A stretch of 64,000 bases of DNA from Octopus sinensis (GCF_006345805.1 NC_042998.1:170810001-170874000), one strand, 5' to 3'; positions 1,751 to 52,311 are shown, counted from the first letter of the stretch. The notes: generated by a model not told the origin, from the letters alone. Translations and numbers: made by a program.

Positions 1751-2092
1751 CAATACAAATAAATTATAAATTGTAAAGCTCTAAAAGAAATGGCAGATGC
1801 TAAAAACCTACATATATGTTTTTGTTCATGTCCCCTGGTGATATGTAATTCTAAGCATTTGGGTAGAGTAATATGCTAAGAATTGGTATTATTTTCAACT
1901 ATATGGGGCAGAATCTCGTAAGCTCATAAAGCCCTGATGAGATTCTGTCCTATATACCAATTCTTAGCATATGACCCTACTCAATTGCTTAGAATTACAT
2001 GTCACCTAGGGTCATGAATCGAAACATATATGTAGGTTTTTGGCATCTGCCATTTCTTTTAGAGCTTTACAATTTATAATTTATTTGTATTG
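1751..2092. repeat. Long imperfect fold-back (arms ~1751-1922 and ~1934-2092), PLE pseudo-LTR-like; sense arm extends to (TA)n at ~2168
   Basis: CAATACAAATAAATTATAAATTGTAAAGCTCTAAAAGAAATGGCAGATGC has its exact reverse complement at 2043-2092. Confidence 0.9.
1928..2040 (+). ncRNA. Minimal type-I hammerhead ribozyme (C3-G8 core) with enlarged stem II domain
   Basis: Stem I AAAGCC(1928-33)/GGUUUU(2035-40); CUGAUGA 1934-40; stem II GAUUC/GAAUC plus AUGACCCUA/UAGGGUCAU; GAAA 2021-24; palindromic stem III ACAUAUAUGU; GUA cleavage triplet ending at 2034. Confidence 0.8.
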
Positions 2093-2189
2093 CTTTTATA
2101 AAAAATTTCATCTTTATATCATACAAATAAATTATTTATACATCAATAATTCTCCATTTTCTTTCTTTATATATATATATATATATATA

Positions 2190-2790
2190 GGTAAACAGTA
2201 AAAATAATTACAGACATGGACAAGAACATGAAACAACACAGAAACGACACAAGAACCACAGGACGGGACATTCGAAGCCCTCAGTCATCAGTCAAGAACC
2301 AGATCATCTTAGCAATTTCGGCTGATTAATCTTGAGATTGCTCCAATATGGCCAGCCCGCCAAGGGAAATCTAAGCCAAGCGCATTAGATACCCTGGAAG
2401 AAAGCTTCGAATGTATACAACACGAGGACGGAAAACGAACGAAGTACACGAACAAAAATACAGAATACGTGACACCAATAAGAATACAAAAACGTAAAAA
2501 CAATAACGGTAAAAATAAAAAATAAACAACAAAACAAAACCAGGACGTAGGACAAGGGTCTTTCGACAGGACGAGTTGAGTATGGGGCTGGCTTGTGAAG
2601 TTGTGCCTAATGGCCGCGGGGAGACGAACAAATACGTGTTGCTTCTGCGACTGCTGAAACGAAAAGAGCGCTCAACAGCAGCTAGCGGTCACGTGAGAAC
2701 AAAAGACAGGAGTAAGGGACAGATGAAAAGAGAGAGAAGGTGGACGAGGGAGGAGAAGAAAGAGACAGATCGAGGGGGCTGGAGGTGAGA
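2190..2790 (-). mobile_element. Unclassified (TA)n-flanked repeat (family C), diverged copy
   Basis: Shares the core GCAATTTCGGCTGATTAATCTTGAGATTGCTCCAAT and GTCTTTCGAC with the copies at 9421 and 10223. Both ends abut TA tracts. Confidence 0.7.
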
Positions 2791-2809
2791 GATATATATA
2801 TATATAGGC

Positions 2810-3170
2810 AAGGTTGCTGATGCTGGTGGCACATGAAAAGCACCTTTTGAGTGTTGGGCCTCATGGAGGCAATCATGAATGACTGACACCTTTGGCATTA
2901 TGCCATGCTTGAGAAGAAGACCCATCAAGCCAAGTAAAATTGTAGTTGTGGCAAATGCTGGTATCACACAAATGGCACCAGTGCTGGTGGCACATAAAAG
3001 CATGCATTACATTCTCAGAGTAGTTGGCATTAGGAAGGGCACCCAGCCGTAGAAACCATGCCAAATCAGACTGGAGTCTGACGCAGCCTTCCAGCTTTCC
3101 AGCCCTGGTCAAACCGTGTCAGCATTGACAACAGATGTTAAGTGATGCTGATGATAATGATAATGATGAT
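2810..3170 (+). mobile_element. SINE/non-autonomous element with (GAT)n tail (family R, RTE-like 3' end)
   Basis: GGCATTAGGAAGGGCACCCAGCCGTAGAAA ... GATGTTAA-(GAT)n. Related copies are at 5225, 18001, 60220 and 61935. Confidence 0.75.
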
Positions 3171-3646
3171 TTCATATATATATATATGTATGTATCGCCA
3201 ATATGACCAAGGTCATATATATATATATATATATATACACACACATACACACACACACATATATATAAATATATATAGATAGATAGGTAGATAGATATAC
3301 AATTTTTATAATTTAAAAGCTTTTTACTTATAAAAATAAATAAAAACATATATAGATGGATAAATAAAATAAAATAGAATAAAAGGATATAAATATATAA
3401 AAGATATATAAATATATAAAAAGATATATAAAAATAAAAAATTTATATATATACACAAACATACACATGCACGCATACACATATGCACATGTACACACAC
3501 ACACACACACACACACACCAATGTATGCATAATGCTGGATGACTGTTGACTACACAGGAGTTCTTCTGCCCTTTGACAGGTCTTATTTTTCGTCCTGCAG
3601 AGTGTCCAACAATCACCCTCCTCACCAAGAAAACTTAGTGGGGTTG

Positions 3647-3723
3647 CCAGTTTAGCGTTGACAACCCGACCATGCAACGGGTTGTACTGGGTTACATGTT
3701 ATCAGTAGCGCTCAAGAGCAACC
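3647..3723 (-). ncRNA. Candidate degenerate HDV-like ribozyme at the 5' end of a ~200-bp repeat fragment
   Basis: Minus strand: GGUUGC (P1) ... CCAGU (P2) ACA-ACCCGU-UGC (P3/L3) AUGGUC (P1') GG, GUU-GUC-AAC (P4), GCUAA (J4/2), ACUGG (P2'). Several mismatches must be assumed to be decay. Confidence 0.4.
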
Positions 3724-3829
3724 TGACATAATATATATACATACATACATATATATTATATATATATATATATATATATATATATATATAATATATATAT
3801 ATATATATTATATATATATATATAAGAAA

Positions 3830-49300: not shown

Positions 49301-50092
49301 TTGCTTACATAACAGTGTTCTCCCCTTCCCTGATATCAGCCACACTCACTATGCCACCATATTTCCCTCACACTAACGTTCTTTGCACCCTTATTTTATC
49401 AAATAATAGCCCAACCCCCTAGGTAGGGGACATTATAGATTTTTAGTGAAATCCAGTCAACTTATAATTCAACTGGATGTTAGTTTAACATGTATGCAAA
49501 GTTTCATCAAGATTAGTTCACTGGTGTAGGCAGCAAGATGGTAACAGACAGAAATTGCCATTCATGTATATGATTGTAGCTTAACCTTAGAAGACCAGTA
49601 TATCTTGAATAAAATGATTAGAGAGAATGTCTTGTGCACTTTTTATTTAAAAAATGTTTTGTTGCTGGTTTTGGTAATTGAACTGTCATTGACCATATTT
49701 GAATATTGTTTCCAAGGGTTTTTTGTCAATCTATTAACCCCTTAAGTTATTTTCAGTCTGATACCAAAATAAGTGAAGTAAACTTTTGACATAAAAGAAT
49801 GCCACTTGATATAGCATTTTGCATCATTTATGCTCACTCTGTCTCTCTCTCTCCACACATACATGCACACATACACACTTTCTCTTTCACTTACAAATAT
49901 TACAACAATCTTCCTCAGTTTCCATCTACCAAATTTCATTCACAATAAGTTGGTTAACCTGAGTGTACAGCAGAAAACACCTACCAAAGATGCTGCTCAA
50001 GGGAATTGAGCCTGAGGTTATATGGTGGCTAAAAATACTTATCTTCACACAACCATTCCTTCTTTTTATCAATTAATACTTGACAGTCAACA

Positions 50093-50322
50093 CCTATTTC
50101 TTTACTACCCACAAGGGGCTAAACACAGAGGGGACAAATAAGGACAGACAAACGGATTAAGTCAATTATGTTGACCCCAGTGCGTAACTGGTACTTAATT
50201 TATCGACCCTGAAAGGATTGAAAGGCAAAGTCGACCTTGGCGGAATTTGAACTTAGAACGTAGCGGCAGACGAAATACGGCTACGCATTTCACCCGACAT
50301 GCTAACCTTTCTGCCAGCTTGT
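50093..50322 (-). mobile_element. SINE family B
   Basis: Closely matches 860-1090. Confidence 0.82.
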
Positions 50323-51131
50323 TGCATTTGGTATCATTGTATTTTAACTTGAACTTCAACCATGATCTGCATTCATGGATGTGTTCTTAGAATTTCTCTT
50401 TCTATGATATTCAAGATTTTTTTTTCTTTTATGTAGAATAGTCATTAATAATGCAGTAATTGATACTTATTACAGATAAGACATGATTAATAAAGTGTCG
50501 ATACTATGGCTGTTCATAGTTTTATATTTTTGTTTCTGGAAACGCAGGCTGCCAAACTAGGAGATAAATTGAATTCTTATTGTTAAATCTTATTCAGCTG
50601 ATTTATATCTAAAGGAGTTCTAGCAATGACCATCCCTTATTTCTTCGGGTGTTAAACTTCCAACATTACATTGTTCAATGTTTTCCCTTTTTAAAAACAG
50701 TGTGTGATTTGAGGGAGTTTTGATTGATAAATTTAGCAGGTTGAGAGTCAATGTAGAGGCTCCTTCATTAACGTGTAATAAGTTTTGCTTCTGAATGTTT
50801 TTAAACTTTGTAGTTTTCCTGAGACTGGTAGTGTGCAATCTCATATGACATAGAACATAATTTTAATTGAAAGGATATAATTTTTGGTTGCTGTTTACTC
50901 CGAAGTGTGTAAGTAACATGCTACAACATTGTTGTGAGATGTAGGATGTGGTGCCTGAACAGTTGCAGGTGCTGGATTGGATGAGTTTTAATATGCCTGT
51001 TAAGTATATAGGGTTAATTTGAATGAACAAGTGATTTGAGGAAATATTTGGCCATCAAAGGCTGTGTTCAAAGTTCATGAGAGGCAGCTGCAGTATATGA
51101 CATGTCATGAGAATGGAAGATACATAATGGA

Positions 51132-51494
51132 CTAGCACTATGACCTGGCGTTGCCGGGTCATAGTGCTAGTGCATGTATATACAGCTGCGTGCGTGCGCA
51201 TATTAACGCGAGTACTGTCCATATCTCTGACCAATCACATACAGCTAGCTGGTATTCAATTGGCGTATCAAGTTTCGGGCATTTTGATTGGGTTTTGGAT
51301 AGAAAATTCTCAAAAAAGTCACTTCTATTGATTTTTTTAAATGGCTTTGCAGGATGACTGGGGCAATGTAAAGATGTGCACGGCCACCCTTGGACGGTTT
51401 TGAATGACCATAGAAAGTGCGAGCCCTCTAACTGAAAAATTGTGGATTTGTATAAAGGACACACACACAGTCATTTTGGCATTTTTATATATAT
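51132..51494 (-). mobile_element. Non-autonomous Helitron-like element
   Basis: Minus-strand CTAG|T end embedded in the hairpin CTAGCACTATGACCTGGC-GTT-GCCGGGTCATAGTGCTAG. Confidence 0.6.
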
Positions 51495-51495
51495 A

Positions 51496-51890
51496 CTAGC
51501 AGTATCGCCCGGCGTTGCTTGGGTTTGTAAGGGAAATAATTATATAAGCATTTTTAGAGATGTAAAGTATAATAGCCATCTCAATATGGCTAACCACAAA
51601 GGGGGAGGGGTGTTACTGTAGCTTTTTACGTTCTGAGATTTAATAATAAATTTTAGAGAGTTACTTCCCTTATATATGTCAAAAATGGATTTAAAATGGG
51701 AAAAATTGATGGCAAATTTTTTTTTAAATCGTAGACTCATCGTAGACGCGCGCTAATACCCAGACGGTCTCGATATGAATCACGACTATAAGATACCCGG
51801 TTTTGGTTAAACTGCACCGCAAAATGTGGGAGTAGTTAGGAATCTAAATCGTAGGAGACAGACACACAATCTCACTTTTATATATAAAGA
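51496..51890 (-). mobile_element. Non-autonomous Helitron
   Basis: Minus strand A|TC start at 51890, 3' GC-rich hairpin CCCAAGCAACGCCGGG and CTAG|T end at 51496. Confidence 0.8.
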
Positions 51891-52052
51891 TTTCCTCTAT
51901 TTACATAATATTGAGGTCTCTTTCTTTCTTTTGTTATCTTACTGTTTTTACCAATATATATATATATATATATATAAATATATATATAGTTACAGAGATG
52001 TACTTGCATAGCAAGTGACTTGATCTGAGATCGTGTGCTGGAACGAAAACAG

Positions 52053-52311
52053 TTGCAGCGTTGAAGGTGTTTATAAGCCATTTAAGAAACACACAAAAAC
52101 CGTTACATTCACTTCAACATTTAAATTTAATTTGCCAAAATATTTTCGTCGCTTTGAGACCGCGACCTGTTAGCACGATATTTTTGTCAGTGAACAGGTC
52201 ACGGTCTCAAAGCGAGGAAAATATTTTGGCAAATTAAATTTAAATGTTGAAGTGAATGTAACGGTTTTTGTGTGTTTCTTAAATGGCTTACAAACACCTT
52301 CCACGCTGCAA
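52053..52311. repeat. Fold-back (119-bp arms 52053-52171 and 52193-52311, 21-nt spacer) between TA tracts
   Basis: Arms are reverse complements with about four mismatches. Confidence 0.93.
52183..52233 (+). ncRNA. Minimal type-I hammerhead ribozyme, G3-C8 core variant with an extra G after A9
   Basis: UUUGUCA-GUGAACA-G-GUC(A)C(GGUCUCAAA)GCGA(G)-GAAA-AUAU-UU-UGGCAAA. The opposite arm supplies the intact stem II GUCGC/GCGAC. Stem I is 7 bp and stem III is the palindrome AAUAUU. Confidence 0.6.

Follow-up and report, generated by a model that had tools for sequence, protein, structure and literature searches.

Fold-back insertions near TA tracts in an octopus genome, their hammerhead folds, and candidate purine-3 cores

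Why should several unrelated inverted repeats in one stretch of octopus DNA share the same layout, and why should the hammerhead ribozyme folds within them differ at the same two core positions? The question is raised by a 64,000-nucleotide (nt) stretch from Octopus sinensis (GCF_006345805.1, NC_042998.1:170810001-170874000), the whole of which is called the window here and which is AT-rich animal DNA with many microsatellites and repeats. A model working from the sequence alone (the sequence-only reading) had described seven or more fold-back insertions there, from about six unrelated families, and had taken them for a radiation of short ribozyme elements derived from Penelope-like elements (PLEs). 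All seven, referred to as 1751, 3830, 10563, 25194, 26103, 26383, and 52053, were present, with arms of 25 to 208 nt, spacers of 1 to 64 nt, and arm identities of about 90 to 100% (Table 1). When arms were compared with arms by BLAST, the sole link was between 10563 and 25194 (86% over 72 nt), and the seven elements therefore represent six unrelated families. The observation as a whole was confirmed, and its interpretation is partly supported. Judging from their sequence, the fold-backs probably behave like PLE insertions, and the shared architecture, which had been offered as a surprise, is not new but already in print as PLE biology (PMC8557442 and PMC4209133; papers are cited here for those parts of them that were available). 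What may be new is the natural occurrence of hammerhead cores with a purine at position 3 and a pyrimidine at position 8.

The association with TA tracts was measured from the nearer end of each element, a tract being at least five TA units. The distances, in window order, were 63, 6, 340, 28, 1, 4, and 0 nt. A tract lay no more than 10 nt away from four of the seven fold-backs, versus 5.7% of random intervals, and no more than 70 nt away from six of them, versus 15.7%; 26103 and 26383 share one TA tract, so these two are not independent. The claim that every element lies in or beside (TA)n held for those six and failed for 10563, which touches only a short mixed TACA/TA run and whose neighbor is a decayed long interspersed nuclear element (LINE) reverse-transcriptase fragment. 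One arm was extended, as had been described, by 44 to 85 nt to a TA-type tract in five of the seven elements (1751, 25194, 26103, 26383, and 52053). In 3830 the extension passes into GC-rich DNA that looks unrelated; this region, 4276-5230, directly after the right arm, holds tandem repeats of 37, 24, and 18 nt, and a search of it for a long open reading frame (ORF) found none. The layout of an inverted, 5'-truncated copy is present in all seven elements, which were chosen for that trait. The arms stand head to head, with the 3' end of each facing outward.

Every architectural feature agrees with published PLE insertions, and this is the basis for proposing a PLE-type origin. PLE insertions are described as having an inverted 5'-truncated copy, a 30- to 40-bp tail at one end, and a bias toward (TA)n (PMC8557442). 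The window elements are like the Hydra-clade PLEs (Hydra-1_oBim, from O. bimaculoides, and Penelope-13_HM; Craig et al. 2021, PMC8557442 and its supplement) in the (TA)n target, the inverted truncated copy, and the one-sided tail, in the type-I hammerhead with a short palindromic stem III of the four elements that carry one, and, for 52053, in U17, which is frequent in that clade. They are unlike them in that all seven lack an ORF and have longer tails, and in that the cores in the available part of File S2 of that paper are all C3-G8. Six short motifs from five of the six window families had no match to the octopus entries in the available part of the supplement, and the 3' ends of Naiad_Obim and Naiad_Ovul, as far as they are given there, showed no resemblance to the window families when compared by eye. 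For the 52053 family, a non-autonomous PLE passenger about 150 to 210 nt long is the likely identity; the remaining families would be either passengers of this sort or autonomous PLEs of which a 5'-truncated end is left, and 26383 and 1751 resemble the Hydra clade.

Both strands of the window were scanned with a strict type-I hammerhead descriptor that allowed any base at positions 3 and 8. Four sites were found, at 1934 on the plus strand (C-G), 3910 on the minus strand (A-U), and 26532 on the minus and 26600 on the plus strand (both C-G). All four have a Watson-Crick 3-8 pair and all lie in fold-backs; in 30 block-wise dinucleotide shuffles, the mean count was 0.07 for Watson-Crick sites and 0.17 for other sites. 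A looser scan gave five Watson-Crick sites versus a shuffle mean of 0.43, and five were reached in none of 100 shuffles. Two extra matches of the looser scan, at 39795 (non-Watson-Crick) and 58818 (U-A, with poor stems), were weak, lay outside the elements, and were rejected as chance. An Rfam search of the window gave 120 matches at E values up to 5, none of them a hammerhead; the best were microRNA models on TA tracts and hairpins and were likewise dismissed as chance.

A fourth carrier element, 52053, was missed by both scans because its window copy is damaged, with stem II lesions at 52201 and 52216 in the right arm and a left arm that ends inside the core. Stem II is intact in the left arm and in the family majority. 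The motif has a 5-bp stem II and the segment GAAA-AUAU-UU, requires an extra G after A9, has a U at position 17, and would be cut after U17 (52226). The bases expected of a type-I core (U4 G5 A6, A9, G12 A13 A14 A15.1, U16.1, H17, and a Watson-Crick 3-8 pair) are present at 1934 plus, 3910 minus, and 26532 minus/26600 plus, and also at 52190 plus in the family majority of 52053. The cores given in the sequence-only reading, CUGAUGA twice, AUGAAUA, and GUGAACA, were recovered at 1934, 26600, 3910, and 52190, and the folds read outward in all four carriers, again as described. Four type-I folds with a tiny palindromic stem III thus stand, with two reservations, namely the damage to the 52053 copy and the 80-nt stem II domain of the 1751 hammerhead, which is hence not minimal and has its predicted cut after A2034. 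The 3830 motif has the textbook minimal form, with a predicted cut after C17 (3886). Covariation of positions 3 and 8 was seen as C-G, A-U, and G-C; the four elements supply three motif types unrelated to one another, so the comparison is between motifs and not within one alignment. In two-molecule folding, a double hammerhead was the lowest-energy form for 3830, 26383, and 1751. As a separate observation, position 17 avoids Watson-Crick pairing with position 3 in all four motifs (C3/A17 twice, A3/C17, and G3/U17), as would be expected if a 3-17 mispair were harmful (PMC3884650); these are four cases only.

The 52053 family was followed in contigs of four public sequencing runs with four organism labels, placed on 51989-52240 (252 nt) at 80% likeness and with a 3% cut-off for variants. 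The contigs placed per run numbered 19,924, 14,285, 9,602, and 6,091, a depth that is no copy number, and 52053 is plainly a very high-copy repeat family. Thirty-three variant rows passed the cut-off, 16 of them CpG decay, and in none of the 33, across the four runs, did a variant of at least 3% fall at 52190-52200 (G3 to the start of stem II), G12-A15.1, U16.1, or U17. At 52201, A is replaced by G in 88 to 90% of the contigs, which restores stem II, and at 52135, C is replaced by T in 68 to 81%, by which a U.G wobble in stem I becomes U-A. Contigs running past the left arm at 52171 go on into the core in four of four runs. The G3-C8 pair, the extra G, and U17 are the state of the 52053 family and no private mutation. 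The motif is thus a property of the family, with G3, C8, and U17 all free of variants at that cut-off, and such a family would indeed be invisible to searches for CUGANGA only, as had been claimed.

Several results weigh against reading these elements as PLE-type insertions with functional hammerheads. No PLE coding sequence was found in the window with 120 PLE proteins and their profile (best tblastn E value, 0.017; best profile E value, 0.39), a weak test, the queries being distant PLEs. Among 51 long window ORFs, there was likewise no Pfam match to reverse transcriptase (RT) or GIY-YIG. Since the window holds no PLE ORF, the elements are not filed as autonomous PLEs, and the tie of the families to an autonomous PLE is one that we infer. 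Good support for a PLE-type origin comes from the architecture and from the 3' ends, tail, and repeated fold-backs of 52053. The tails measure 44 to 85 nt versus 30 to 40 nt in print, and no long TA tract stands at the left end of 1751 or at either end of 10563. A search of sequencing runs listed no RNA run, a result that counts neither for nor against the elements being transcribed. Neither the strict nor the looser scan found a hammerhead in 10563/25194 or 26103, which leaves three of the seven elements without the motif; these may be cut downstream of a hammerhead. A3-U8 is known from one insertion, 3830, both arms of which carry the core. For a repaired 52053, the double hammerhead had an energy of -25.4 kcal/mol versus -30.4 for the best dimer, with stems I and II nevertheless forming, and in the repaired monomer G3 paired with U17 at a probability of 0.67, a pairing that is a possible dead-end fold in the model. 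The monomer folding z-scores of the four motifs were unremarkable, at -0.98 to 0.33. Finally, the conservation of the 52053 core does not prove selection, the family being young and most non-CpG sites equally invariant.

Some of these points also suit the view that the insertions are of PLE type but carry their A3-U8 and G3-C8 folds unused, as slow or dead relics, a view that we hold to be rather unlikely, though a serious one. PLE insertion in vitro proceeds without need for hammerhead cleavage, and no RNA ends at the cut site were seen there (PMC11167929); cleavage by minimal PLE hammerheads is weak, also when they form dimers (PMC4209133). The predicted G3.U17 mispair, the lack of a separable selection signal in 52053, and the three elements without a motif point the same way. 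However, each variant requires two compensating transversions, yet the other core bases are intact, as are stems I and II and the palindromic stem III, and the only common change inside the G3-C8 fold preserves pairing (U.G or U-A). These features point to past selection, not present activity.

The contigs of the 52053 family also inform on how its copies were inserted. Loose ends that continue into long AT-rich flanks accumulate before 51990, 51995, and 52053, marking three discrete 3' ends without poly(A), and the long and short ends are those used by the two arms of the window copy. Contig agreement fades about 25 nt before G3, a common 5' start, and most copies appear to be units of about 150 to 210 nt without an ORF. 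Nine of the 15 joint rows listed, out of 129 in total, connect a sense start at 52180-52183 with an inverted arm whose cut lies at 52013-52130, and several such junctions recur in two to four runs; these are further insertions that share the geometry but differ in their junctions. The window copy has the tail only on its left arm and the core only on its right, and a rare allele at 52106 is present in both. Each arm holds sequence that is absent from the other, and so neither arm is a copy of the other. From the opposite unshared parts together with the common allele at 52106, we infer priming from two ends on one donor RNA. This fits the behavior of the anole PLE protein in vitro, which cuts both strands, extends them, and has two start sites that delimit the tail (PMC11167929).

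How PLEs make inverted insertions is named as an open question in PMC8557442. In the mechanism that we propose, short noncoding RNAs would be copied into (TA)n by a PLE reverse transcriptase-endonuclease. The protein would nick both strands of the self-complementary target, and both target ends would prime complementary DNA (cDNA) on the RNA of one donor, one cDNA starting at the distal site, so that the tail is kept, and the other starting at the proximal site, with no tail. The two cDNAs would stop at different points before being joined head to head. The hammerheads, predicted to self-cleave as dimers, would be slow ribozymes that trim the RNA with the help of dimer formation or of protein, and their 3-8 tertiary pair would tolerate any Watson-Crick pair.

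The same products might be sought from a snap-back, in which a single cDNA folds and copies itself with no priming from both target ends, but we consider this unlikely. It would explain the rare alleles common to both 52053 arms (52106 and 52135), the identical arms of 26383 with their spacer of 1 nt, and the shorter arm of 1751, which lies wholly inside the longer one. It does not explain the unshared sequence on each 52053 arm, a junction without clear microhomology, or the other 52053 copies whose inverted arms consist of tail alone plus inserted letters. For elements other than 52053, a snap-back is possible.

Far less probable than either of these views is that the fold-backs are miniature inverted-repeat transposable elements (MITEs) or fold-back DNA transposons with long terminal inverted repeats inserting at TA. 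The long inverted arms, the TA flanks, and the lack of coding capacity would suit such elements, and octopus DNA commonly contains MITEs and Tc1-mariner elements (PMC13282606). However, the ends are unequal, with one-sided tails, the inner junction varies freely among copies, the 52053 family has three alternative 3' ends, and four elements carry strand-specific hammerhead folds; for 52053, the variable junctions and three 3' ends seen in the contigs largely refute this origin. Scarcely credible is an assembly or library artifact, a concern that the sequence-only reading had itself raised and that the complete identity of the 26383 arms and the trouble such structures give short-read assemblies (PMC8557442) might feed, since the arms differ by about 3 to 10% in six of the seven elements, the 26383 mirror ends at the element's end with different flanks beyond, and the 52053 family has discrete 3' ends, an intact core and stems, and other fold-back copies in independent contigs of several runs.

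There remains the PLE-type reading, and within it the question of the cores. Our search of the literature found no natural A3-U8 or G3-C8 hammerhead and no report of a cephalopod hammerhead, but it covered text only, and prior notice is quite possible. Przybilski and Hammann reportedly found in 2007 that cleavage occurs with any Watson-Crick pair at 3-8, and Lunse et al. are said to have described about 150,000 PLE variants in 2017. In the available part of PMC3884650, G3-C8 is mentioned only as a made variant, and the change C3G/G8C partly rescues a PLE hammerhead whose cleavage requires protein and is not required for insertion (PMC11167929). The first natural covariation of the 3-8 pair to be reported, and the only one that our search turned up, was U3-A8 (Perreault et al. 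2011, PMC3088659), which keeps a pyrimidine at 3 and a purine at 8, whereas the window has purine-3/pyrimidine-8 in both possible forms. The available parts of PMC6155905, PMC6765202, PMC11014351, PMC7229834, PMC13725137, PMC13282606, and bioRxiv 10.64898/2026.07.22.740005 hold nothing on core variants. In the parts of the consulted papers that describe hammerhead searches, the final filters demanded C3 and G8.

PLE pseudo-long terminal repeats (pseudo-LTRs) carry minimal hammerheads as opposite-strand pairs 100 to 700 bp apart, with an extra base between 9 and 10.1 and a palindromic stem III (Cervera and de la Pena 2014, PMC4209133). The window motifs share with these the type-I form, the tiny palindromic stem III, the predicted dimers, the opposite-strand pairs, and the extra base, and a covaried core exists there too, as U3-A8 in Schistosoma. 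They differ in the 80-nt stem II domain of 1751 and in the cores, a purine standing at position 3 in none of the 56 motifs of Figure S3, and the available part of that paper lists no cephalopod. Animal nonlong terminal repeat (non-LTR) retrozymes (PMC7229834; bioRxiv 10.64898/2026.07.22.740005) are, like the window elements, short, noncoding, and hammerhead bearing, and are proposed PLE passengers. Retrozymes are defined by tandem head-to-tail arrays, canonical type-I hammerheads, and circular RNAs, whereas the window elements are dispersed head-to-head fold-backs with PLE-type tails, and no head-to-tail tandem array with hammerheads was found in the window.

Public contigs were searched for similar cores. 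The 52053 family motif had no match in metagenome contigs, and a 3830-like pattern was found at one locus in viral contigs. A pattern left open at N3 and N8 gave 116 distinct matches in metagenome contigs (120 of about 880 loci), 16 of them with a stem I of at least 3 bp; nine of the 16 are C-G, one is U-A, six are mismatched, and none is A-U or G-C. In viral contigs, the open pattern gave 98 distinct matches (120 of about 190 loci) covering 15 of the 16 pairs, of which one, an A-A, passed the stem filter; this was set aside as chance level. Judging from the metagenome sample, Watson-Crick purine-3 cores look rare outside the octopus genome. Ten metagenome loci were looked at for ORFs and eight were scanned. 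One of them, a PLE designated L179 (2-4040, minus strand), encodes RT plus GIY-YIG in one ORF and has an upstream ORF of 457 codons; its C3-G8 hammerhead fold lies about 150 nt ahead of the first ORF and has the ending GAAA-CCGG-UC, as in 3830; it has no relatives in the viral contigs. Another metagenome contig, L217, has near its middle, on the plus strand, a hammerhead fold with a U3-A8 core and a 4-bp stem I.

We suggest tentatively, and at less than even chances, that octopus genomes hold working A3-U8 and G3-C8 hammerheads, known so far only as laboratory mutants, with the G3-C8 form residing on a very abundant 150- to 210-nt non-autonomous PLE passenger that would insert by two-ended priming. 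If so, all four Watson-Crick 3-8 pairs would occur in nature, hammerhead censuses based on CUGANGA would overlook entire high-copy families, and a fresh look would be due at PLE clades in which hammerheads are said to be lacking. The G3-C8/U17 family and the minimal A3-U8 motif are molecules from nature on which the 3-8 tertiary pair can be tested. Thousands of short 52053 copies, with their differing junctions, are a data set on how PLEs make inverted insertions. The core variants could surprise a specialist; the insertion layout would not.

Table 1. Positions of the fold-backs and hammerhead folds in the window (a dot marks a feature listed without a strand)
Feature	Position	Strand	Description
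Fold-back 1 (1751)	1738-2167	+	Arms 1738-1889/1954-2105, 137/152 alike, spacer 64 nt
Tail of fold-back 1	2106-2167	+	One-sided, runs to (TA)n at 2168
Hammerhead of 1751	1928-2040	+	Type I, core CUGAUGA 1934-1940 in spacer, GAAA 2021-2024, palindromic stem III
Fold-back 2 (3830)	3830-4275	.	Arms 3830-4037/4068-4275, 192/208 alike, spacer 30 nt
Left end of fold-back 2	3830	.	Abuts (TA)n 3757-3824
A3-U8 hammerhead of 3830	3881-3915	-	Minimal type I, core AUGAAUA 3910-3904, 2-bp stem II, GAAA-CCGG-UC
Mirror A3-U8 copy, right arm of 3830	4190-4224	+	Core kept 4195-4201, G12 lost
Fold-back 3 (10563)	10563-10727	-	Inverted arm 25 nt, 10631-10655/10703-10727, 23/25 alike
Fold-back 4 (25194)	25197-25310	+	Arms 25197-25231/25236-25266, 29/31 alike; 44-nt tail to TA-type tract
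Fold-back 5 (26103)	26012-26330	.	Arms about 26104-26216/26226-26330; right end at (TA)n 26331; inverted match spans 26096-26216/26226-26338, 110/113 alike; left arm runs on for about 85 nt to (TA)n
Fold-back 6 (26383)	26383-26834	.	Arms 26383-26565/26567-26749, 183 nt, 100% identical, spacer 1 nt (26566)
Ends of fold-back 6	26383, 26834	.	Left end inside (TA)n; right arm runs on for about 85 nt and reaches (TA)n at 26835
Mirror hammerhead of 26383	26491-26536	-	Identical to 26596-26641
Hammerhead of 26383	26596-26641	+	Type I, core CUGAUGA 26600-26606, 5-bp stem II, GAAA-CAAUUG-UA, predicted cut after A26637
Fold-back 7 (52053)	51990-52311	.	Arms 52053-52171/52193-52311, 115/119 alike, spacer 21 nt
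Flanks of fold-back 7	Tail 51990-52052	.	(TA)n on both sides
G3-C8 hammerhead of 52053	52183-52233	+	Type I, core GUGAACA 52190-52196, extra G 52197, 7-bp stem I

Other features of the window were noted in passing. A TA-anchored family with three copies (2170-2800, 9409-9793, and 10210-10549) carries on the minus strand a decayed CUGAUGA/CUGAGGA...GAA motif and is possibly another PLE-type family without the inversion. Decayed LINE reverse-transcriptase fragments lie at 10728-11222 (minus strand) and 27927-28491 (plus strand), with best protein matches in Octopus bimaculoides. A 55-amino-acid reverse-transcriptase fragment at 10951-11115 matched Pfam RVT_1 (E value, 1e-4) and had two homologs among 66 candidates, both of them O. 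bimaculoides proteins, at 71% identity. Five more short fold-backs were seen at 24930-25097, 25465-25539, 8054-8168, 51121-51182, and 6327-6385, the first two inside TA tracts. A 127-nt inverted repeat at 37362-37488/39143-39269 has arms that are 99% alike, stand 1,654 nt apart, and have their outer ends at short TATA runs; the DNA between them is ordinary looking, and the structure could be a DNA transposon, or else inverted host DNA enclosed by a PLE-type double insertion.

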